Shown piece by piece: positions 47,966 through 57,549 of a stretch of DNA of 57,575 nucleotides. Numbering within the stretch: the first letter of the stretch is position 1; each line of letters starts with the position of its first letter. The notes below the pieces were generated by a model. That model was given only the letters and a program-made list of their open reading frames with translations, was not told the DNA's origin and ran no database searches. Source of the stretch: Acidimicrobiales bacterium (GTDB taxonomy: Bacteria > Actinomycetota > Acidimicrobiia > Acidimicrobiales > CADCSY01); the NCBI GenBank assembly GCA_040905815.1, contig JBBDQT010000001.1:1-57575 (forward strand). The letters run 5' to 3'. Made by a program: the position numbers and the translations under genes.

Positions 47966-48262
47966 CTACAGAGGACGGTCGACGTAGCGCGCGACGGTGG
48001 GCGCCGTCGTCGCCGAGACGAGGCGACGGACGACCTGGACCTCGGGGCCGGCGAGGCTGGCCTCGAGGTGCGCCTGCACCTCGGCGGCCTCCTGCAGGAG
48101 GTCCTCGGCCCTGGCCCGGAGCTCGGCGGGGAGCGGGCCCATCGACGGGGGCGGCGCGAACGGCCCGACGGCATCCGGCTGGCCGGCGTGCAGGGCGGCC
48201 CGCTGGTCTGCGAGCCGGGCGGCGAAGGCGTCGAGGGCGCGCTCCCACGCGGCGAGGCTCAC
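47966..48262 (-). CDS. Hypothetical helical protein in the FliT position (98 aa)
   Basis: GTG 48262 forms a GTGA overlap with the fliS stop. VSLAAWERALDAFAARLADQRAAL...AEDLLQEAAEVQAHLEASL. No sequence-level family call. Confidence 0.4.
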   Translation of the reverse strand: MSLAAWERALDAFAARLADQRAALHAGQPDAVGPFAPPPSMGPLPAELRARAEDLLQEAAEVQAHLEASLAGPEVQVVRRLVSATTAPTVARYVDRPL

Positions 48263-48642
48263 CGGCCGGACTCCAGGGCGGCCTCGTGCCACGCGTCGCG
48301 CAACGGCTCCAGGAGCTCCCGACATGCCGCCACCCTTGCTGCGTCCTTGGCCACGTTGGCAGCGACGAGCTCGGTCACGACGAAGTCGTAGAGGTCGGCG
48401 AGCGCCGGCCCCCCGCTCCAGGCGCCGACGTCGAGGCTGGTCCGCAGCTCCGTGACGATCGCCTGGGCGTGGAGCAGCTGGTTGTGGGCCGCGGCGCCGT
48501 CGCCGTCCACGAGCGCCTGCTCGGCGGCGACCACGTCGCGCACGAGGCGGTCGTAGAGCATGGTGAGCAGGCGGGCGGGCGAGGCCGTGGCCACCGCCTC
48601 GCCCGAGTACCTGGCGCGCAGCGCCTGGGATGTCATGGCCAT
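48259..48642 (-). CDS. fliS: Flagellin-specific chaperone FliS
   Basis: ORF 48259..48642. YSGEAVATASPARLLTMLYDRLVRDV...AQAIVTELRTSLD...LADLYDFVVTELVAAN. Confidence 0.9.
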   Translation of the reverse strand: MAMTSQALRARYSGEAVATASPARLLTMLYDRLVRDVVAAEQALVDGDGAAAHNQLLHAQAIVTELRTSLDVGAWSGGPALADLYDFVVTELVAANVAKDAARVAACRELLEPLRDAWHEAALESGR

Positions 48643-48651
48643 CGTCGCTCC

Positions 48652-50010
48652 CTACCCGTTCGTGTTGGCGTTGAGGCCGGCGAGCTGGCCGGCGAGCCAC
48701 TGGCTCTGGGACTGCGCCTGCCCCAGCGCCCGCTCGAGCGCGCTGAACTGGCGGGTCAGGTTCGTCCGGCGCAGCTCGAGGCGCTGGTCCCAGCTCGCGA
48801 TGTTGGCGTCGAAGCGGGTTCGCTGCCCTTCCCGGGAGCTGATGGCACTGGTCAAGAGGCCGACATCGGTCGTGGTGCTCTGCGCCTTGGTGGCGATCTC
48901 TGCCAGCGCCTCCAGCCGGCCTGCGAGGCCGCCCGCGCCTCCGAGCACGGCCTCGGCGACCGCCGGGTCCTTCTCGTAGGCGGCGGCGAACTTGGCCTCG
49001 TCGAGCTTGATGGTGCCGTCCCGCTCGACGGTGACGCCGAAGTCCGCGGCGCTGTAGGTCGTGGTCCCGACCGTGACGCCGGCGGCGAACTCCTTCAGCA
49101 CCTTCCCCTGCAGGCCCCGCACGAGGGCGTCTCCCACGAGGACGCCACCCTTCTTGGCGGTGACGTCGTAGGACGTGTGCTTCTTGATGTCGGCGAGGAT
49201 GCCGTTGGCATCCCCGACGAGCTTCGCGACCTGGGCGGTCATGGCCTTGGTGTCGCCGGCGACCTCCACGGTCACGGCCGTCGCCGTGGTCTTGAGGGTC
49301 ATGGTGACGCCCTCGAGCAGGTCGCTGAACGTGTTGGACGAGCGGGTCACCGTGTACGGGTTCGTCCCGCCGACCTGGAGCACGGCGTCCTGGGCCTTGG
49401 CGAGCTCCACCACGTCACCGAGCGTCGTCGCCGTGAACGACCCGGCGGCGACCGACACCGAGGTGCCGGCGCCGGTGGTGGTCGACGACAGCTGGAGCTT
49501 GTACGTGCCGGGCGACACCTGGACGGCGGTGGCGGTGACGCCCATCTTCTCGTCGTTGATCGCCTTGACCACGGCACCGAGGCTGCCGTCGCCCACGTTG
49601 ATGCTGCGGGTGTCGGCGCCCTTCGTGACCGAGATCGTGGCGCCGGAGGCGACGACATCGGACAGCGCCGTGGCGCTCCCGGAGGAGATGGCGGAGCCGG
49701 CAACCGCAAGCTGCGTCACGTCGAACGTCAGGCTCGCGGGCGGGGCGCCGGCAGCGGCGGAGACGGCGACGGCAGCCTCGTTGCTCGATGTCGCGGTGGC
49801 GGGCTGCCAGCCGGTGGCGGTGGTCATCGCCGCCGAGGTGGTCTTCATCGCGAGGAACAGGGTGTTGAGGCCCTGGAGGGCGGTGATCGCCAGCTCGTTG
49901 CGGCCGCGGGCCTGCTGGATGCGCACCTGGGGCTGGCGCTCGAGCTGCATCAGCTGGTTGATCAGCTGGGTCGTGTTCAGCCCCGAGATCAGGCCGTCAA
50001 TGGTCGCCAT
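48652..50010 (-). CDS. fliD: Flagellar filament cap protein FliD
   Basis: ORF 48652..50010. MATIDGLISGLNTTQLINQLMQLERQPQVRIQQ ... RRTNLTRQFSALERALGQAQSQSQWLAGQL. Confidence 0.9.
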   Translation of the reverse strand: MATIDGLISGLNTTQLINQLMQLERQPQVRIQQARGRNELAITALQGLNTLFLAMKTTSAAMTTATGWQPATATSSNEAAVAVSAAAGAPPASLTFDVTQLAVAGSAISSGSATALSDVVASGATISVTKGADTRSINVGDGSLGAVVKAINDEKMGVTATAVQVSPGTYKLQLSSTTTGAGTSVSVAAGSFTATTLGDVVELAKAQDAVLQVGGTNPYTVTRSSNTFSDLLEGVTMTLKTTATAVTVEVAGDTKAMTAQVAKLVGDANGILADIKKHTSYDVTAKKGGVLVGDALVRGLQGKVLKEFAAGVTVGTTTYSAADFGVTVERDGTIKLDEAKFAAAYEKDPAVAEAVLGGAGGLAGRLEALAEIATKAQSTTTDVGLLTSAISSREGQRTRFDANIASWDQRLELRRTNLTRQFSALERALGQAQSQSQWLAGQLAGLNANTNG

Positions 50011-50369: not shown

Positions 50370-51191
50370 CTACTGGAGGAGCTGCAGGACGCCCTGCGGC
50401 ACCTGGTTGGCCTGGGCGAGCATCGCGGTGCCCGCCTGGGACAGGATCTGCGCCCGGGTGAAGGCCAACATCTCCTTGGCCATGTCGGTGTCACGGATCC
50501 GGGACTCCGAGGCGGCCAGGTTCTCCGACGCCACGTTCAGGTTGTTGATGGTGTGCTCGAGGCGGTTCTGGACGGCACCGAGGTCGGCACGCTGGCCGGA
50601 GACCTGCTCGATCGCGGCGTCGAGCGACGTGATCGCGCTGGATGCGCCGGTCTGGGTGGTGACGTCGATGGCGTCGATCTTGGTGGTGTCGCCGAGGGCG
50701 GTCGCCCGCATGTCGCTGGCGGTCACGTTCAGCGTCTGGCCGGCGTTGGCGCCGATCTGGAGCGTGCCGCTGAAGCTCCCGTCGAGCAACGTCTGGCCGT
50801 TGAACTCGGTGTTGTTGCCGATGCGGGTGAGCTCGGCCTTGAGCGCGTCCACCTCCTTGCCGATCTGCACGCGGTCGTCAGCGGTGTTGGTGTCGTTGGC
50901 GCTCTGGACCGCCAGCTCACGCATGCGCTGGAGGATGGCGTGGCTCTCGTTGAGGGCCCCTTCTGCGGTCTGGATGAGGCTGACGCCGTTCTGGGCGTTG
51001 GCCACCGCGGTGTTCAGGCCCTTGACCTGGCTGCGGAGCTTCTCGGAGATGGCGAGGCCGGCGGCGTCGTCGGCGGCCCGGTTGATGCGGAAGCCGGAGC
51101 TGAGGCGCTCGAGGCTCTTGGACTGCTGGCCCTGGGTCACCGACAGGTTGCGGTAGGCGTTCATGGCCGTGATGTTCTGGTTGATGCGCAT
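50370..51191 (-). CDS. fliC: Flagellin (short, 273 aa)
   Basis: From ATG 51191 (GGAGGAG SD). MRINQNITAMNAYRNLSVTQGQQSKSLERLSSGFRINRAADDAAGLAISEKLRSQ ... TRAQILSQAGTAMLAQANQVPQGVLQLLQ. Confidence 0.95.
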   Translation of the reverse strand: MRINQNITAMNAYRNLSVTQGQQSKSLERLSSGFRINRAADDAAGLAISEKLRSQVKGLNTAVANAQNGVSLIQTAEGALNESHAILQRMRELAVQSANDTNTADDRVQIGKEVDALKAELTRIGNNTEFNGQTLLDGSFSGTLQIGANAGQTLNVTASDMRATALGDTTKIDAIDVTTQTGASSAITSLDAAIEQVSGQRADLGAVQNRLEHTINNLNVASENLAASESRIRDTDMAKEMLAFTRAQILSQAGTAMLAQANQVPQGVLQLLQ

Positions 51192-51265
51192 GGTGGTCTC
51201 CTCCGTGGAAGTTGACGACCCCCGTCCTTGGGAGCCGCTCGGCCGCAGTGTTGCGGACAGCTGGT

Positions 51266-51273
51266 TCATCGGC
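51266..51273 (-). promoter_or_regulatory. Candidate sigma-28 (FliA) -10 element GCCGATGA upstream of fliC
   Basis: The minus strand reads GCCGATGA, 7 of 8 matches to GCCGATAA, about 75 nt upstream of the fliC ATG. I could not find a convincing TAAA -35 at the canonical spacing. Confidence 0.3.
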
Positions 51274-51334
51274 GCACCCGGCCGGGACCTGCGCGAAATC
51301 CTCTGAAGAACTTCGACGCCACCGGTGGTGGTGC

Positions 51335-52996
51335 TCAGGGGCGGCTCGAGCTCCGTTCCAGGGCGGCCGCCAGCTCCCGCAGCTCGGCGGCCTGCTCGGC
51401 TGCGCCGAGCGCCTCCAGCGCGTCTGCCATGAGGCGGCACCGGGCAGGGGTGGACGCGGCGCCGCGCACGAACGACGGCAACGCGGCCGGGGCGATCTGG
51501 TCGAGCTCGTGGAGCAGCGCGTCGAAGCGCCCGGCGGCGACGAGCGCAGCTGCGTCCGCGATGGCGCCGAGCGCTCCCTCGTCGGCGAACGCGCCCACCG
51601 CGATCGCCCCCGCCATGATCCGGCGCTCGGGATCCTCGGCGGGCGCCCCGGCGATGGCGAGCAGCGGGCAGTGGTCCGGCGCGCCGTGCTGGCGGGCGCG
51701 GGCGGACCACTCGAGCGCCCGGTCGAGGCCGAGGTCGACGCCGATGGTCGCGCCGAAGGGCACCAGGGCGCGGGGTGCGGCGCCGGCCTGCCAGAGCGCC
51801 TCGCCGAACGCGTCGGCGGCCTCGACGGGCCGGGTGAGCGCCTGGCCGAGGGCCACCACGAGCAGGTCCGGCGTCACGGCGGCCGCGACCTCGGCCGCGG
51901 CGTCCACCTGGTGGGCAGCCTCGACGAGCGCCGCCCATGCCGGCTCGTGCTCCGACACGAGCGCGACGACGGGGAGCAGGACGTCGATCGCCTCCCGCCA
52001 ACGCTTCTCCGCGAACAGCGCCAGGCCCCGCCTGGCCGCCACGAGGGCGCCCGGCACCTCGTTGCCGTCCTCGTCGCGCGGCTCATCGATCGCGTCGAGG
52101 CACGACAGGGCGCGCTCCACCGCACCGAGCTGGAGGTGGGCGGTGGCCTCGAGGTAGTCGACGATGCCGTGGACGGAGCTGTCGCGCCGGAGCTCGTCCA
52201 ACCAGGCCAGCGCTTCGCGCGGACGGCCGAGAGCGAGCAGGCACTCCGCCCCCGAGCGGAGCACGCGCCGCCGCACGACCGGGTTGGCCACGCCGACGCC
52301 CCGCAACGAGCGCAGGTGCTCGAAGCCCTCCTCGACCCGATCGGCCGCGACGAGGGAGCGGGCGAGGTTCAAGGCGATGGCGGGATCGGCGCCACCGGCG
52401 GCGGCCATCTGCGCCTGCGCGAGCCTGACGTTGCGCTCCAGCTTGGCGCGCCCCCCCTCCCCGCCTCCGGCGTAGCCGACGTGGACGAGGCGGATCCGCT
52501 CGGTCGTGGCCTCGGTGAGGTCGCCGGCGCCGGACGCGGCGACGACCTGCTCGTGCAGTCGGCCGGCCCACCGCCCGCGGGAACGCTGGAACAGCCGACC
52601 GCCCCGGTGGGTGGAGCGGACCGACCGGGCGGGCCCGGCCACGTTGTCGATCGCCACCGACACCACGTCGCTGCGCTCCCGGCGCAGGTCCTCCCGGAGC
52701 CCGGCGAGATCGCCTTGGACGACCTCGTCGGCATCGACGTGGAGCACCCAGCGCCCCCGGCACTGCGAGAGCGCGGCGTTGCGGGCACGGGCGAAGTCGT
52801 CGTCCCAGTAGCCCTCGTGGACCATGGCGCCGGCCGCCCGGGCGATCTCCATCGTGGCGTCGCGTGAACCGGTGTCGGAGACGACGACCTCGTCGGCCAG
52901 CCCCTGCAGGGATGCGAGGCACGCCGGGAGCAGCTCCTCCTCGTCCCGGACGATGAGGCAGGCCGAGAGGAGCGGCGCGGTGCTGTCGGGAGCCAT
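51335..52996 (-). CDS. Family 2 glycosyltransferase fused to C-terminal TPR repeats
   Basis: Part of ORF 51335..53518, from ATG 52996. LSACLIVRDEEELLPACLASL...VVVSDTGSRDAT...VLHVDADE (GT-A DxD), then about 330 aa of TPR-like helical repeats. Confidence 0.8.
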   Translation of the reverse strand: MAPDSTAPLLSACLIVRDEEELLPACLASLQGLADEVVVSDTGSRDATMEIARAAGAMVHEGYWDDDFARARNAALSQCRGRWVLHVDADEVVQGDLAGLREDLRRERSDVVSVAIDNVAGPARSVRSTHRGGRLFQRSRGRWAGRLHEQVVAASGAGDLTEATTERIRLVHVGYAGGGEGGRAKLERNVRLAQAQMAAAGGADPAIALNLARSLVAADRVEEGFEHLRSLRGVGVANPVVRRRVLRSGAECLLALGRPREALAWLDELRRDSSVHGIVDYLEATAHLQLGAVERALSCLDAIDEPRDEDGNEVPGALVAARRGLALFAEKRWREAIDVLLPVVALVSEHEPAWAALVEAAHQVDAAAEVAAAVTPDLLVVALGQALTRPVEAADAFGEALWQAGAAPRALVPFGATIGVDLGLDRALEWSARARQHGAPDHCPLLAIAGAPAEDPERRIMAGAIAVGAFADEGALGAIADAAALVAAGRFDALLHELDQIAPAALPSFVRGAASTPARCRLMADALEALGAAEQAAELRELAAALERSSSRP

Positions 52997-53007
52997 CGTG
53001 CGATCCT

Positions 53008-55836
53008 TCACGTCGTCCTCGCGTTCAGATGTGGGAGGTCTGGTGCCTGCCGCGCGCGGCCGACCAGAGCATCCCTCGTCAACGACCTCCCGTGCAGCGC
53101 CCGCTCGAGCTCGCCGTGCCACCAGCCCGGAAGCGGCACGCCTGCGTCGAGCTCGACGGGGGAGTCGACGGCGGCGCGGAGGCGGCGCGCGTCCTCGGGC
53201 CCGAGCACCTGGGGGATGAGGAGCATGTCGGGCGCCCGGTCCGGGTCGACGCCGGCGCCTCGAAGGGCTGCAGTGACCGCCTCCACGATGTCGTCGGGCG
53301 ATGTCTCGGAGCCGTCCTCGGCGTAGAGCACGAGCGTGGTCGGCTCCGCTGGACCGAGCGAGCGTGCGTAGCCCACGACCAGGTCGCGCACCGACCTCGC
53401 GCCGCAGACTTGGGCGGCGAACGTCACCCGGTCGCCGGTGTCGAGGGGGAACGGCGAGGCGGCCCGGTCCCGGAGCACCGCCCAGCTGCGGGTCGGCTCG
53501 GTGCCGGCGAGCGTGCACAGCCGCTCCTCGACCTCGGCCGCAGTGCGGTCCCAGGTGAGCGCTTCGAGCACGTGCTCACGGGCCGCCCGGGCGTTCCGGA
53601 GGGCGAGGTCGCGGTCCGACACGGCGAGCTCCATGAGCCGGCCCAGCTCCTCGACGTCGGGCTCCCAGAGCCAGTAGCCCGCAGCGCTCGGCCCGAAGGC
53701 GTCGCCGGCGATGGGTCGCTGCTCGGCGGGGACCAGGAAGGCGCGGTCATCGGTGCAGTAGTCGAGCGCGGCGCCCGCGCCGGTGGTGATGACGGGCAGG
53801 CCAGATGCCATCGACTCGACGATCGGCAGCCCGAACCCCTCCCCCCGGTAGGGGTGGGCCAGCACGTCGCACGTCCGGTACAGAGCAGCGACGTCTCGGG
53901 GCATGAGGTCATCGGAGATGAGCTCGATCTCCGGCGCCGAGGGATCGTCCTGGAGCCTGCGGATCTCGGCGTCGATGCTGGCATCGGCGTAGAACGACTC
54001 GCTGCCGAAGCTCTTGACGACCAGGCAGACGTCGTCGGCGCGGCTGAAGGTGGCGGCGTAGGCGCGCAGGAGCAGGTCGGTTCCCTTGCGAGGGATCGTG
54101 CCGCCCACGAACAGCAGCTTGGTCCCTCGCCGGGTCCGCAGCGGGTAGCGGTCGCCGTCGGGGCGGAACACCGCCGGGTCGACCCCGAGCGGGATCACGT
54201 GCAGCCGCTCCTCGGGCACCCCGGAGTCCCGGTACACGTCGCGCACGTAGCTCGAGTAGCACCAGACCTCGTCGACCTGGCGGAGGAGCGGGGGAAGCCA
54301 CGCGTCCGGTAGGCCGCCGTACTCCCACGGCTGCATGACGACCCACGCTCCCGAGCCAGGGGGCGTCCAGTCCGGGGGCCACTGGTGGCGCACCTCCACG
54401 TCGGCACGCGCGGCGAGCACGGACCCGGTCACCGCTGCCAGCGGCCCGAGCGAGGGATCGGCGTCGGGGTCAGGCGAGCGCCTCTCGGATGTCACTGCTT
54501 CGAGCTCGACCGCACCCCGCTGCACCAGCCGGCGACAGATCTCCCGGTTGACCGACGCGAGGCTGTGGTGGGCGAACTGCTCGCCCCGCCAGCGGACCCG
54601 GGGGGCATCCGGGCGGGACGGCGCGCGCCGCGGGCGAAGTCCCGCGTCGAGCTCCACGAGCCGCTCGCTGACGACCTCCAGCGCCGAGGACCACGTCCAG
54701 CGCCGTTCGACATCGGCCCGTGCCCGCTGCCCGAGGGCCCGCGCCGCCGAGGGGTCCTCCGCCACGTGGCGCAGCAGGCGGGCGAGATGACGAGCGGACG
54801 GTCGGGCCCAGCGATGGCCACGGTAGAACGCCAGCTCCTCGCGCCTCCCGACCGCGTCGATGCTCTGCACGTCGACGAGCAGGCTGTTGTCGTCGTCCAT
54901 GAACTCGAGGTTGCCGCTCCAGCGGGTGCCGATGGTGGGAAGGCCCGTTGCCATCGCCTCGAGGAGGGGCCGCCCCCACCCCTCGCCGCGGCTGATGCCC
55001 ACGTACGCGTCGGCGCTGGCGTACAGCCGCGGCATGTCGGCGGTGGGGACGGGTTGCTCGAGCACGACGATGGGCGCCACGCTCGCCCGGGTCCTCCCCA
55101 TCCGGCGGAGGAAGTCATCGATCCGGCGGCTGACCCAGTCAGGACTGCTCCGGGCGTCCGGGTCGAGGGCGTAGCTGCGGATCACCAGGGAGACGTCGTC
55201 GGTGGGCCCGAACGCCATCGCCCACGCCCGGAGCAGCACGTCCCACGCCTTGCGGTAGCTCCACTCGAAAACCGAGAGGAAGGCCGTCTTCCGGGTGCCG
55301 GTGAGCGCCAGGGGCTCGAGCCCGGGGCGGTAGCGGTCCGCGTCGACCCCCCCGGGCACCACGTGGACCGGTGTGCGGACGCCGGCGCGTCGGAACGTCT
55401 CGAGGTTGAAAGCGGACGGCACCCAGACCTCGTCCACCGCGTTCAGCTGCTGCACCCAGCTCGGCGGCAGCCGGTCCGTCTCGAACATGGTCCGCGCCAC
55501 GTTGCGGACGTGGCCGGCCGGACCGATGGCGTGGGCCGGCATGTGGTGGACCCCGAGGCTGTAGCGGTGCGGCGGCTCGGAGACCACCGCTTCGAGGCGC
55601 CCCCGCTGGACCGGGTCGAACCCGTCCAGGAAGGCGGGCTCCACCGGGTACAGCGGGTGTGCCCGGACCGGCCAGCCCCGCTCTTGAACGCCGAGGACGA
55701 ACGCCCTGGCCTCGTCGGCGTAGCCGCTGTGGTTGAGCAGCGGCGCGTGCCACTCGACCCCGAGCACCTGGTGGGCACCCAGGCTCATCACCAGCCGGTC
55801 CATCGGCTCCGTCACCGCCTCCAGGTAGGGCATCAT
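53008..55836 (-). CDS. Large tandem GT-B (GT4-type) glycosyltransferase, two catalytic modules plus a C-terminal domain of unknown function
   Basis: ORF 53008..55836 (942 aa). Two EX7E-type regions: ISRGEGWGRPLLEAMATGLPTI and HPYRGEGFGLPIVESMASGLPVI. Confidence 0.8.
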   Translation of the reverse strand: MMPYLEAVTEPMDRLVMSLGAHQVLGVEWHAPLLNHSGYADEARAFVLGVQERGWPVRAHPLYPVEPAFLDGFDPVQRGRLEAVVSEPPHRYSLGVHHMPAHAIGPAGHVRNVARTMFETDRLPPSWVQQLNAVDEVWVPSAFNLETFRRAGVRTPVHVVPGGVDADRYRPGLEPLALTGTRKTAFLSVFEWSYRKAWDVLLRAWAMAFGPTDDVSLVIRSYALDPDARSSPDWVSRRIDDFLRRMGRTRASVAPIVVLEQPVPTADMPRLYASADAYVGISRGEGWGRPLLEAMATGLPTIGTRWSGNLEFMDDDNSLLVDVQSIDAVGRREELAFYRGHRWARPSARHLARLLRHVAEDPSAARALGQRARADVERRWTWSSALEVVSERLVELDAGLRPRRAPSRPDAPRVRWRGEQFAHHSLASVNREICRRLVQRGAVELEAVTSERRSPDPDADPSLGPLAAVTGSVLAARADVEVRHQWPPDWTPPGSGAWVVMQPWEYGGLPDAWLPPLLRQVDEVWCYSSYVRDVYRDSGVPEERLHVIPLGVDPAVFRPDGDRYPLRTRRGTKLLFVGGTIPRKGTDLLLRAYAATFSRADDVCLVVKSFGSESFYADASIDAEIRRLQDDPSAPEIELISDDLMPRDVAALYRTCDVLAHPYRGEGFGLPIVESMASGLPVITTGAGAALDYCTDDRAFLVPAEQRPIAGDAFGPSAAGYWLWEPDVEELGRLMELAVSDRDLALRNARAAREHVLEALTWDRTAAEVEERLCTLAGTEPTRSWAVLRDRAASPFPLDTGDRVTFAAQVCGARSVRDLVVGYARSLGPAEPTTLVLYAEDGSETSPDDIVEAVTAALRGAGVDPDRAPDMLLIPQVLGPEDARRLRAAVDSPVELDAGVPLPGWWHGELERALHGRSLTRDALVGRARQAPDLPHLNARTT

Positions 55837-55849
55837 CGCGACCCGGCGG

Positions 55850-56659
55850 TCAGGGCCGGACCGCGGTCGCCGTCATGTTCGGCTCGTGGTCGAGGTCGAC
55901 GACGACGAAGCCAGCCAGGGCCAGGCTCTCCTGGAACGTCGCGGGGGTGAACCCGTGGTGGTGGGCGTCGAAGGCGCCGTCGGGGCCCCACCGGTGCCCG
56001 CCGTAGACGTTCTCGATCACCTCGGCCACGTCGTGGCCCCCGAGCAGCAGTGAGGCGAGCGCATCGAGGTTGGGGACCCGGCACCGCAGCACCCCGTCGG
56101 GCAGGAGGACCCGATGCCACTCCGCCAGCAGCTCCTGGGTGCGGAAGACGGGAACGTGCTCGAGGATGTCCATCGCCAGCACCTCGGCGACGCAGCGGTC
56201 CGGGAACGGCAGTGCCTCCACCGAGGCGACCACGTCGGACACCTCGGTCCGCAGGTCGATCGAGAGGTAACCGGGCCGGCGGTCGTCGCCGGCGCCCACA
56301 TTGAGCCGCAGCTGGCCATCCTGGGGGTCGGTGGGGCTCGCCACGACCGGCGTCGGGTCGGTGAGCGAGAGGCGGTTGGCGGCGACATCGAGGTCGTCGG
56401 GGTCGAGCACCGCGGCACGCTCGATCATGGCCTTGGCCTCGTCGACGAGGTCGCAGGCGTAGAGGACGGCGGCCACGTCGGAGAGGAGGCGGGCGTCCTC
56501 GCCGTGCTCGCGGACCGCCGCCAGCAGGACGCCGAGCACATCGGTCGCCGCGGCACCGGCACGGAGCAGGAGCTCGGCGTGCTGGCGGGCCTGGGCGATC
56601 GCCGCCGGTCGGAGGATGGAGGAGGACGAAGCGCCCGGTCCCGGCTCTGAGCCTCTCAT
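55850..56659 (-). CDS. Class I SAM-dependent methyltransferase (Methyltransf_11/23-like) with an N-terminal helical domain
   Basis: ORF 55850..56659. LRLNVGAGDDRRPGYLSIDL...VLAMDILEHVP...WHRVLLPDGVLRCRVPN. Confidence 0.75.
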   Translation of the reverse strand: MRGSEPGPGASSSSILRPAAIAQARQHAELLLRAGAAATDVLGVLLAAVREHGEDARLLSDVAAVLYACDLVDEAKAMIERAAVLDPDDLDVAANRLSLTDPTPVVASPTDPQDGQLRLNVGAGDDRRPGYLSIDLRTEVSDVVASVEALPFPDRCVAEVLAMDILEHVPVFRTQELLAEWHRVLLPDGVLRCRVPNLDALASLLLGGHDVAEVIENVYGGHRWGPDGAFDAHHHGFTPATFQESLALAGFVVVDLDHEPNMTATAVRP

Positions 56660-56692
56660 GCGGTCAACCCGCCCTCATGCGGTCAACCCGCC
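56655..56692. repeat. Exact 19-bp tandem duplication (ctcatgcggtcaacccgcc x2) spanning the fliA stop and the methyltransferase start
   Basis: Read directly: copy 1 at 56655..56673, copy 2 at 56674..56692. Copy 2 holds the fliA stop codon (tca at 56683..56685). Copy 1 holds the methyltransferase ATG (cat at 56657..56659). Confidence 0.9.
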
Positions 56693-57549
56693 GAGGCGCC
56701 CAGACCCGCACCCACGGGCTGCCGGTCGAGCCGGCTGCGGAGGTCCGACGCGGACGCCATGCTCTCACAGTACGCAGCCCGGCGGCGGGCCACCACCCCG
56801 GTGGCCGTGCCCGAGGCGGTCGCCGCCTCGGGGTCGAGCGCCTTGGACATGGCCTCGTGCATGAGGGACAGGGCCTCTGCCCGCATGTGGGAGGCGCGCG
56901 ACGCGCTCACGCCGAGCTCGGCGCCGAGGTCCTCGAGGGGCCGGTCCTCGAAGAAGTAGCCCACGACGACGTGGCGCAGACGCTCCGGTAGCATGGCGAC
57001 CGCGTCGTGCAGGTAGCCGTTGCGCTCGCGGTCGAGCAGGGCGTCCTCGGGCGTCGCGTGGTCGGCGGGGACGGCGGCGTGGTCGTCAGCGGCGAGGAAG
57101 CCGTCGAAGCTGACGACGGTGGCCCGGGCGACATCGGCGACGACCTGTGCCGCCTCGCCGGCGGACAGCCCGGCCGCCGCCGCGGCGGCCGCCAGGCTGG
57201 TCCCGCCTTGGTCGGCGGCGTCCTGCAGCGACCGGGCCCTCGCCCTGACCCCCCGGGACGCCCAGTCGGCGCTGCGGAGCTCGTCGAGCACGGCACCCCT
57301 GATGCGCGTCGTGGCGTAGGCCGCGAAGGGGACACCCTGCGCCGGGTCGAAGCCCCGAGCCGCCCGGAGCAGCCCCACCATGGCGGCAGAGGTCAGGTCG
57401 TCGCCGCTCACGTGCCGGGGCAGGCGCCCGCGCAGCCCGGTGACGACGTGGTGGACGAGGGGCAGGTGCTGGCGGACCAGCTCCTCCTCGCTCGGTGAGG
57501 TGGGAGGAGCTTGCACTGCCGTTGACCGCATGGCAGGAACGTCGTCCAC
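56683..57549 (-). CDS. fliA: Flagellar sigma factor FliA/WhiG (sigma-28 group)
   Basis: ORF 56683..57549. Region 2 LVRQHLPLVHHVVTGL...DDLTSAAMVGLLRAARGFDPAQGVPFAAYATTRIRGAVLDELR. Region 4 LPERLRHVVVGYFFEDRPLEDLGAELGVSASRASHMRAEAL. The start may be the internal ATG near 57531. Confidence 0.85.
   Translation of the reverse strand: MDDVPAMRSTAVQAPPTSPSEEELVRQHLPLVHHVVTGLRGRLPRHVSGDDLTSAAMVGLLRAARGFDPAQGVPFAAYATTRIRGAVLDELRSADWASRGVRARARSLQDAADQGGTSLAAAAAAAGLSAGEAAQVVADVARATVVSFDGFLAADDHAAVPADHATPEDALLDRERNGYLHDAVAMLPERLRHVVVGYFFEDRPLEDLGAELGVSASRASHMRAEALSLMHEAMSKALDPEAATASGTATGVVARRRAAYCESMASASDLRSRLDRQPVGAGLGASAG

Follow-up and report, generated by a model that had tools for sequence, protein, structure and literature searches.

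Work on flagellin glycosylation has concentrated on Proteobacteria and Firmicutes, and several of the described systems bear on the one analysed here, namely a row of three enzyme genes lying between the flagellar genes fliA and fliC of an uncultured Acidimicrobiales bacterium. The row is contained in a stretch of 57,575 nucleotides (hereafter, the window). It is taken from a 65.9-kb contig, of which it forms the first 57.6 kb, and the contig belongs to a 2.2-Mb metagenome-assembled genome (MAG) with approximately 73% G+C; the named relatives of the window proteins come from Acidimicrobiales and Acidimicrobiaceae MAGs. The three genes encode a methyltransferase with a head resembling tetratricopeptide repeats (TPR), a 942-residue protein with two family-4 glycosyltransferase modules (the tandem GT4 enzyme), and a family-2 glycosyltransferase continued by helical repeats (the GT2-repeat enzyme).

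For the last of these, an instructive counterpart is GmaR (Lmo0688) of Listeria monocytogenes, which is both a flagellin beta-O-GlcNAc transferase and the antirepressor of MogR (PMC9638930). The two have in common a GT-A domain that is homologous over its whole length, a TPR-type solenoid following it, the character of a soluble cytoplasmic enzyme and a short flagellin consisting of D0/D1 domains. They differ in that the window enzyme has no detectable antirepressor domain and in that its gene lies directly upstream of fliC, in the company of extension enzymes, whereas Listeria adds a single GlcNAc. Type B flagellin of Clostridioides difficile receives GlcNAc from a GT2 enzyme, while another enzyme, with a PF08241 domain, attaches two rhamnoses and probably also their methyl groups (PMC5207246). 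Judging by their descriptions, the C. difficile systems (CD0240 in type A; GT1, a GT2-methyltransferase and GT3 in type B) resemble what is proposed for the window in having a GT2-family enzyme by fliC that adds the first sugar, a multi-domain enzyme that adds two more, and probable methylation by a PF08241 domain. Unlike here, however, the extension enzyme there is of the GT-A type (PF00535) rather than a tandem GT4 of the GT-B type; what is more, the window methyltransferase is a separate gene product with a TPR-like head, and no rml or other sugar-nucleotide genes are found in the fliA-fliC island. In Pseudomonas aeruginosa, FgtA (PA1091), a flagellin glycosyltransferase of the GT2 family, and PA1088-PA1090, which include an accessory methyltransferase, are encoded in an island by fliC (PMC11833859), and in P. 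syringae Fgt1/Fgt2 likewise belong to a flagellin glycosylation island next to fliC (PMC3402453). In contrast to the window enzymes, PA1091 carries a fused phosphotransferase, and PA1088 is a methyltransferase for a dimethyl-threonine substituent.

Similarity in architecture extends to SunS/ThuS, enzymes which glycosylate peptides by means of a GT-A domain joined to a helical substrate-binding domain. SunS, however, acts on a cysteine in a ribosomal peptide, and its gene is part of a bacteriocin cluster, while the helical domain of the window enzyme is twice as long and its gene lies in a flagellar locus. The Maf enzymes of Campylobacter, Helicobacter and Aeromonas and FlmG of Caulobacter likewise O-glycosylate serine and threonine residues of flagellin in the cytoplasm, but they use other catalytic folds and other donors, namely nonulosonic acids. 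FlmG is said to recognize flagellin through a TPR domain. The same has been described for Maf-1 (PMC13317340). A sequence-only reading of the window had proposed that its enzymes are unrelated to the Maf/Pse systems, and this is borne out: searches against Pfam and NCBIfam gave no Maf family match, and between fliA and fliC there are the three enzyme genes and nothing else, no Maf-type or nonulosonic-acid gene among them.

In other words, GT2-family flagellin glycosyltransferases (GT2 with TPR in Listeria and Clostridium, FgtA in P. aeruginosa) and multi-enzyme islands with methyltransferases are already known. What the sequence-only reading missed is that the GT2-repeat enzyme belongs to this GmaR / CD0240 / FgtA class, and for this reason the system is less novel than that reading had implied. 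It is not a new kind of system, but a putative local variant of one already described. That said, in the literature searched we found no description of a tandem GT4 enzyme and a TPR-methyltransferase as extension modules, nor of their shuffling by fusion across phyla, and no experimental work on flagellin glycosylation in Actinomycetota. Our favoured reading, to which we assign a probability of about 0.72, is that the island O-glycosylates flagellin in the cytoplasm before export, with GmaR-type initiation, extension by the GT4 modules and methylation of a sugar. The observations behind it are the domain identities and catalytic motifs of the enzymes, their lack of membrane segments, their position by fliC, their co-occurrence with flagellin and the natural fusions of their genes.

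Domain structure of the three enzymes and their presumed substrate

In the GT2-repeat enzyme, the Pfam family Glycos_transf_2 is matched with 55.6 bits over amino acids (aa) 11-131, and the solved structure that it resembles most closely in sequence is that of the GmaR glycosyltransferase domain (PDB 22ao_A; E 4e-25 over aa 2-196 with the single sequence). With a family profile made from 18 homologues, the same structure is matched at E 2.6e-47, profile positions 8-207 being aligned with chain residues 3-202, that is, with the entire domain. SunS is matched at E 3.5e-11 by the single sequence and at 1.2e-26 by the family profile (7msp), and the best curated NCBIfam match is the SunS peptide S-glycosyltransferase family, under the cut-off of that model. 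Three catalytic stretches, D41-T-G-S..D46, D88-A-D90-E91 and H148-E-Q150, are invariant in the 18 homologues. The AlphaFold model has a predicted local distance difference test (pLDDT) score of 91.3 and consists of a GT-A domain followed by approximately 22 paired helices over aa 180-548 (pLDDT >90); taken as a whole, its best fold match is SunS/ThuS (PDB 7msn, 7msp, 7msk), with E 2e-14 and a target-normalised template modelling (TM) score of 0.72. The sequence-only reading, which had described a GT-A enzyme with a DxD motif fused to TPR repeats, was thus right on both counts: the motif is D88-A-D90, and the helical pairs of the model are accompanied by matches of the family profile to TPR/PPR solenoid proteins. 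Pfam TPR matches lie under the cut-off in the enzyme itself, while its homologues carry curated ones.

Profile positions 152-278, which take in the end of the glycosyltransferase domain and the first repeats, give a further match, to PDB 7x9r. This chain bears only the name 'glycosyl transferase family 2', and we take it to be the GmaR141-637 construct. Past position 278, the C-terminal half of the enzyme gives no profile match to 7x9r, so that no antirepressor domain is detectable. Within the helical domain, the residues W430, R433, R435, C443, R459 and F470 are invariant in the 18 homologues, which are 37-89% identical, and form a candidate partner-binding site. This patch (aa 420-475) includes an ALEWSARLR...CPL motif within an otherwise variable helical domain. 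Taken together, the GT2-repeat enzyme is the probable initiating O-glycosyltransferase of flagellin and, by analogy, its helical solenoid is a candidate flagellin-binding domain. A role of the TPR domain as flagellin-recognition module, as the sequence-only reading had suggested, is plausible; for GmaR, too, this role is a proposal (PMC9638930).

In the 942-aa protein, each of the Pfam families Glyco_trans_1_4, Glycos_transf_1 and Glyco_transf_4 is matched twice, and the AlphaFold model (pLDDT 88.3) contains two GT-B modules (aa ~25-399 and ~413-777) and an alpha/beta domain (aa ~782-930), in agreement with the earlier description of two complete GT-B modules and a C-terminal domain of unknown kind. 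Both modules carry the EX7E motif (E285/E293 and E666/E674, respectively) as well as an R-K phosphate-binding pair (R195-K196 and R583-K584), all of them invariant in 31 sequences. Sequence matches of module 2 to the PDB, over aa 517-694, are 7qsg and MshA (3c4q, 3c48), the former of which the fold search lists as a Mycolicibacterium hassiacum enzyme, the mannosyltransferase of methylmannose polysaccharide; the fold matches of the model as a whole are ordinary retaining GT4 enzymes, including PimB', GlgM, MshA and PglA. Relatives of the tandem GT4 enzyme number more than 1200, with 35-55% identity, and come from many phyla. Its C-terminal domain, in which the model has a beta-alpha-beta layer from aa 804 to 916, is missing from part of the homologues (it is common to P0145, P0139, P0165, P0227 and P0136) and has no match in Pfam or the PDB, nothing falling below E 0.02 in a PDB profile search. 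The idea that it once was half of a third GT4 module and has since degenerated found no support, a profile-profile comparison against the alignment of the whole family having returned the self-match only.

The third enzyme had been read from the sequence as a class I S-adenosylmethionine (SAM) methyltransferase, which agrees with a match to Methyltransf_11 (PF08241) over aa 142-191 at 33.3 bits, against a cut-off of 21.2. It is laid out as a TPR-like N-terminal region (aa ~20-100) and a class I SAM domain (aa ~110-269) whose motif I reads LNVGAGDD. The N-terminal matches to TPR_14 and TPR_19 are sub-threshold in the window protein, and the TPR is clear in fused homologues; even the best curated matches of the methyltransferase are weak and uninformative. 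We regard it as a probable glycan O-methyltransferase.

No membrane segments are found in any of the three enzymes: the top mean Kyte-Doolittle values over 19 residues range from 1.1 to 1.7, and each of these maxima falls in an Ala-rich helix. As for the presumed substrate, the flagellin contains DTTKIDAIDVTTQTGASSAITS and was aligned with 15 flagellins from related loci. Serine and threonine account for 15 of 56 residues at aa 140-195, as compared with 44 of 273 overall, which fits the earlier description of a short flagellin with a central segment rich in these two residues.

Distribution within and beyond the order

In order to see how closely the enzymes follow flagellin, we searched 301 genomes of the same order, counting GT2-repeat homologues at E<=1e-20. 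Such a homologue occurs in 57 of these genomes and flagellin in 63, the two occurring together in 49, the glycosyltransferase only in 8, flagellin only in 14 and neither in 230 (Fisher p = 5e-35, uncorrected for phylogeny). The relationship becomes strict if full-length homologues are considered, that is, those in which the helical domain is covered: they are found in 41 genomes, all 41 of which have flagellin, and in none of the 238 genomes without it. In the 8 genomes with the glycosyltransferase only, the matches cover the catalytic domain alone. Moreover, 27 of the 36 strongest matches lie at most 2.1 kb from a Flagellin_N match on the same contig; the remaining 9 have no flagellin match on their own contig, many of these assemblies being fragmented. 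In G044, for instance, the gene is split over two contigs, the second of which runs directly into fliC. The homologue stands directly beside fliC in G007, G016, G038 and G035, and in 18 of 20 further loci of the order.

Two layouts are seen in the 25 loci read closely, namely fliA...GT2-fliC-fliD-fliS, as in the window, and fliS-fliD-fliC divergent from GT2-tandem GT4. In several of these loci, a full-length tandem GT4 enzyme (45-55% identity) lies alongside the GT2 enzyme, while others have instead a GT2 enzyme with an extra N-terminal GT-A domain, in forms of about 800 aa. GT2-repeat homologues of the order are also found within open frames of 1400 to 2569 aa (for example, G073:C4:58342-59847), which are multi-glycosyltransferase fusions beside fliC.

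Outside the order, the whole row has a parallel in the cultured Motilibacter rhizosphaerae (assembly GCA_004216915.1), where fliA is followed by a methyltransferase gene, a tandem GT4, a GT2, five flagellin genes and fliD. Its tandem GT4 enzyme has 913 aa, includes the C-terminal domain and is 50% identical to that of the window at 93% coverage; its GT2 enzyme has 717 aa and is 38% identical to the GT2-repeat enzyme over aa 3-503. The five tandem flagellin genes encode proteins of 271/272 aa, and FlgN-FlgK-FlgL-FliW-CsrA lie opposite fliA, as on the window contig. The methyltransferase slot (L052:7132-7950, SGXD01000001.1) holds a protein of the Methyltransf_21 (FkbM-type) family, apparently a non-orthologous gene that has taken over this place. 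In Desulfacinum infernum, the genes leading up to flagellin and fliD comprise a tandem GT4, a pair of GT2-TPR genes and additional glycosyltransferase, methyltransferase and sulfotransferase genes. Since the adjacency to fliC recurs across the order and in other phyla, it is not due to chance.

What argues most strongly for a common pathway of the three window genes is that natural fusions join them. Namely, P0144 consists of a tandem GT4, TPR and a methyltransferase of the window type, its C-terminus being 46% identical to the full-length window methyltransferase (E 1e-60); P0136 has the same composition plus the C-terminal domain; and P0129 joins a tandem GT4 to a GT2-repeat enzyme of the window type (42% identity, E 3e-103). 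The LNVGAGDD and YLSIDL motifs of the methyltransferase are kept in both P0144 and P0136. In a wider set of 80 loci with tandem GT4 relatives, taken from contigs of one genome per species, a GmaR-like GT2 domain adjoins in approximately 55. One further fusion, a single open reading frame (ORF) of 1902 aa, is of the form GT2-GT4x2-TPR-GT2-TPR, the GT2 before the final TPR being GmaR-like, and is located on the verrucomicrobial contig CAMDGV010000017.1 (labelled Akkermansia muciniphila; L074:8594-14302). Approximately 3 kb downstream of it there is a gene with an N-terminal methylation motif like that of type IV pilins, and the glycosylation kit may have a non-flagellar use. Finally, contig CAVWXH010000005.1 (labelled as a Methanomicrobiales archaeon MAG; L082:9077-12997) carries a 1306-aa ORF related to the tandem GT4 enzyme, followed by a GmaR-like GT2 domain; this could be a case of mis-binning or of horizontal transfer.

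Gene layout of the locus

The coordinates of the features are collected in Table 1. All three enzyme genes are in line with fliA on the minus strand, at the positions given for them in the sequence-only reading, and the distance to fliC, which had been put at 140 bp, is 143 nt. Intergenic gaps in the order fliA-methyltransferase-tandem GT4-GT2 are 23, 13 and 11 nt. As the enzymes are encoded in one tight row behind fliA, their production would be coupled to that of the sigma factor by which fliC is normally switched on. The fliA product matches TIGR02479 FliA_WhiG at E 7e-41, yet under the curated cut-off of that model. A scan of the row with consensus patterns gave no convincing internal terminator or sigma-70 promoter, the two weak intragenic terminator-like matches comparing with 0.7 expected by chance, and reading of the spacer upstream of fliC yielded a candidate sigma-28-like -10 box, GCCGATGA.

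Table 1. Features of the enzyme row and its flagellar neighbours in the window, with the basis of each assignment.
Feature	Position	Strand	Basis
fliA (sigma-28 / FliA-WhiG family), first of the tight four-gene row	56683-57549	minus	Sigma70_r2 and Sigma70_r4 matches
TPR-methyltransferase, 269 aa	55850-56659	minus	PF08241
Tandem GT4 protein, 942 aa	53008-55836	minus	Pfam GT4 families, model
Tandem GT4 module 1 (aa ~1-399), retaining-type GT-B	54640-55836	minus	Pfam stretch 259-384, model, fold matches to GT4 enzymes
Tandem GT4 module 2 (aa ~400-777), GT-B	53506-54639	minus	Pfam stretches 503-555 and 573-709; PDB sequence matches
Tandem GT4 C-terminal alpha/beta domain (aa ~778-942)	53008-53505	minus	model
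GT2-repeat enzyme, 553 aa	51335-52996	minus	Glycos_transf_2, model
GT2-repeat enzyme, GmaR-like GT-A catalytic domain (aa 1-195)	52412-52996	minus	PDB 22ao match
GT2-repeat enzyme, TPR-like helical solenoid (aa ~196-553)	51335-52411	minus	model, family profile
Spacer of 143 nt between enzyme row and fliC	51192-51334	minus	sequence reading
fliC, 273 aa, short D0/D1-only flagellin	50370-51191	minus	Flagellin_N 151 bits, Flagellin_C 105 bits
fliD	48652-50010	minus	
fliS	48259-48642	minus	

The neighbours of the row are fliA, fliC, fliD, fliS, flgK and flgL. Past fliA, the contig continues (57.7-62.6 kb; L020:1749-6578) with divergent flgN-like, flgK, flgL and csrA genes, a small FlbD-like gene and motA. 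The GT2-repeat gene starts with an ATG at 52996 preceded by AAGGA, with an alternative GTG at 53011 that overlaps the upstream stop as GTGA. Between fliA and the methyltransferase, a 19-bp sequence is repeated exactly and in tandem (GCGGGTTGACCGCATGAG and one variable base; 56655-56692, minus strand), the repeat spanning the stop of the former and the start of the latter; each copy contains TGA and ATG, giving a mini-ORF of 4 codons ahead of the methyltransferase ATG at 56659. Reading the translations of the non-flagellar ORFs at 1-24 kb by eye, with no family searches made, revealed no sugar-nucleotide genes.

The proposed mechanism and its alternatives

How would the three enzymes work together? 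In the favoured reading, the GT2-repeat enzyme would bind flagellin via its helical domain and would move the first sugar from a nucleotide sugar to serine or threonine hydroxyls in the exposed central segment (aa ~140-195). The two GT4 modules of the 942-aa enzyme would then add two further sugars, or two alternating linkages, and the TPR-methyltransferase would O-methylate a sugar of the chain, possibly as a cap. All of these steps would take place in the cytoplasm, ahead of type III export. Here, the models from which we infer that flagellin is the acceptor, in which order the steps occur, what the sugars are and that the methyl group goes to a sugar are GmaR (PMC9638930) and the type B flagellin of C. 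difficile (PMC5207246). That flagellin is O-glycosylated by these enzymes had already been proposed by the sequence-only reading, and the proposal gains support from the conservation of the GT2-repeat enzyme beside fliC, from the flagellin found in 41 of 41 genomes, from the gene order in Motilibacter, from the fusions and from the absence of membrane segments.

That said, several observations weigh against this reading. To begin with, 14 of the 63 flagellated genomes have no GT2 homologue, and the latter is consequently dispensable for flagella as such; the source MAG, furthermore, is only 76% complete. In the set of 80 loci with tandem GT4 relatives, flagellin lies within 10 kb in only about 24, and the 1902-aa verrucomicrobial fusion, too, has no flagellin gene within 10 kb. 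As tandem GT4 loci, often with a GmaR-like GT2, thus occur without flagellin at this distance, the module is not strictly flagellin-specific, and the kit is probably used on other acceptors too, or is located away from fliC in some genomes. As for the methyltransferase, the window type is found in none of the 25 related loci of the order at E<1e-8, and the candidate in Motilibacter proved not to be homologous (Methyltransf_21 there versus a PF08241-type enzyme in the window; best BLASTP E 6.9). For these two reasons, we consider methylation to be an accessory step with an unproven target. In other words, where the sequence-only reading looked to the co-occurrence of the whole trio with fliC in other genomes, the expectation holds for the GT2-repeat enzyme (41/41 flagellated) and for the order of the slots in Motilibacter rhizosphaerae, but not for the window-type methyltransferase (0/25 loci). 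What is more, the island methyltransferases for type A flagellin of C. difficile (CD0243) and for b-type flagellin of P. aeruginosa (PA1088) have a threonine moiety as their target, not a sugar (PMC11833859).

The methyl acceptor is in fact the main uncertainty within the favoured reading. It is possible, though we think it unlikely, that glycosylation proceeds as proposed and that the methyltransferase modifies instead the flagellin polypeptide or a non-sugar substituent. The former is what FliB does with flagellin lysines in Salmonella, and the TPR-like N-terminus of the window methyltransferase could itself bind a protein; the latter has its precedents in the two threonine-directed enzymes just mentioned, and the weak curated matches of the methyltransferase would be compatible with either. 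On the other hand, the flagellin has only 7 lysines, no homologues of CDP-threonine genes are present in the fliA-fliC island, and the C. difficile type B fusion of GT2 and methyltransferase is thought to methylate rhamnose (PMC5207246). Most importantly, the window-type methyltransferase is fused to a tandem GT4 in many organisms (46% identity), as one would expect if it acted on the product of the latter. Would the conclusions be different if the enzymes did not act on flagellin at all? They could build a cell-surface or cytoplasmic glycan such as a methylated polysaccharide, or glycosylate another protein, and their proximity to fliC would then reflect co-regulation or chance. GT4 and GT2 are generic enzyme families, module 2 finds its best sequence match in the PDB in a mannosyltransferase of methylmannose polysaccharide (7qsg), and relatives of the tandem GT4 enzyme occur not only in loci without flagellin within 10 kb, but also in lineages labelled non-motile. 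We nevertheless find this explanation quite improbable. Namely, full-length GT2-repeat homologues are restricted to flagellated genomes, the place beside fliC is kept in many families and other phyla, both in the co-directional and in the divergent arrangement, and the GT2 domain is specifically GmaR/SunS-like, i.e. of a kind directed at proteins and peptides. In particular, an envelope polysaccharide cluster is unlikely because the proteins are soluble, the neighbours are flagellar and the full-length homologues occur strictly in flagellated genomes; no flippase, polymerase, ABC exporter or membrane-bound initiating transferase/phosphoglycosyltransferase is found beside the enzyme genes in the window.

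Another argument one can make is that the GT2-repeat protein is bifunctional in the manner of GmaR, whose C-terminal domains sequester the repressor MogR (PMC9638930). Its helical domain would in that case bind a regulator of flagellar genes, besides glycosylating or instead of it, and might replace control of FliA by an anti-sigma factor of the FlgM type. The gene does lie in the fliA row, its C-terminal patch is strongly conserved, and FlgM (PF04316) was matched in none of seven flagellated genomes of the order (G000, G007, G016, G038, G035, G122 and G050; six of them at least 90% complete, each with fliA). The last point is a weak negative, however, as FlgM is short and divergent and the control search missed it in Caulobacter; MogR (PF12181) was likewise matched in none of the seven genomes, though the control genomes gave no match either. 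Given, in addition, that there is no detectable similarity to the antirepressor domain of GmaR, the match to 7x9r stopping at profile position 278, that flagellin binding explains the conserved patch equally well and that the catalytic residues are all intact, we regard a regulatory role as highly improbable.

A further possibility goes beyond the favoured reading and concerns the trio as a modular kit spanning phyla, in which the tandem GT4 would be a polymerase of two linkages and the methyltransferase a cap that terminates the chain. In Escherichia coli O9a WbdA/WbdD and Geobacillus WsaE, two glycosyltransferase modules in one chain are combined with a methyltransferase which caps and terminates the polymer; unlike the window enzymes, these act on lipid-linked glycans at the membrane, and the analogy is a functional one only. 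We consider this idea rather doubtful. If true, it would mean that flagellin, or another secreted protein in the case of the non-flagellar loci, carries methyl-capped oligo- or polysaccharide chains of controlled length, and not single sugars or short fixed glycans.

It is in the extension modules, shuffled and fused as they are across many phyla, that this locus adds to what is known of flagellin glycosylation islands. The tandem GT4 family, highly conserved yet unstudied, is now open to direct test, and in Motilibacter rhizosphaerae there is a tractable, cultured organism in which the glycan could be determined and each of the enzymes assigned its step.

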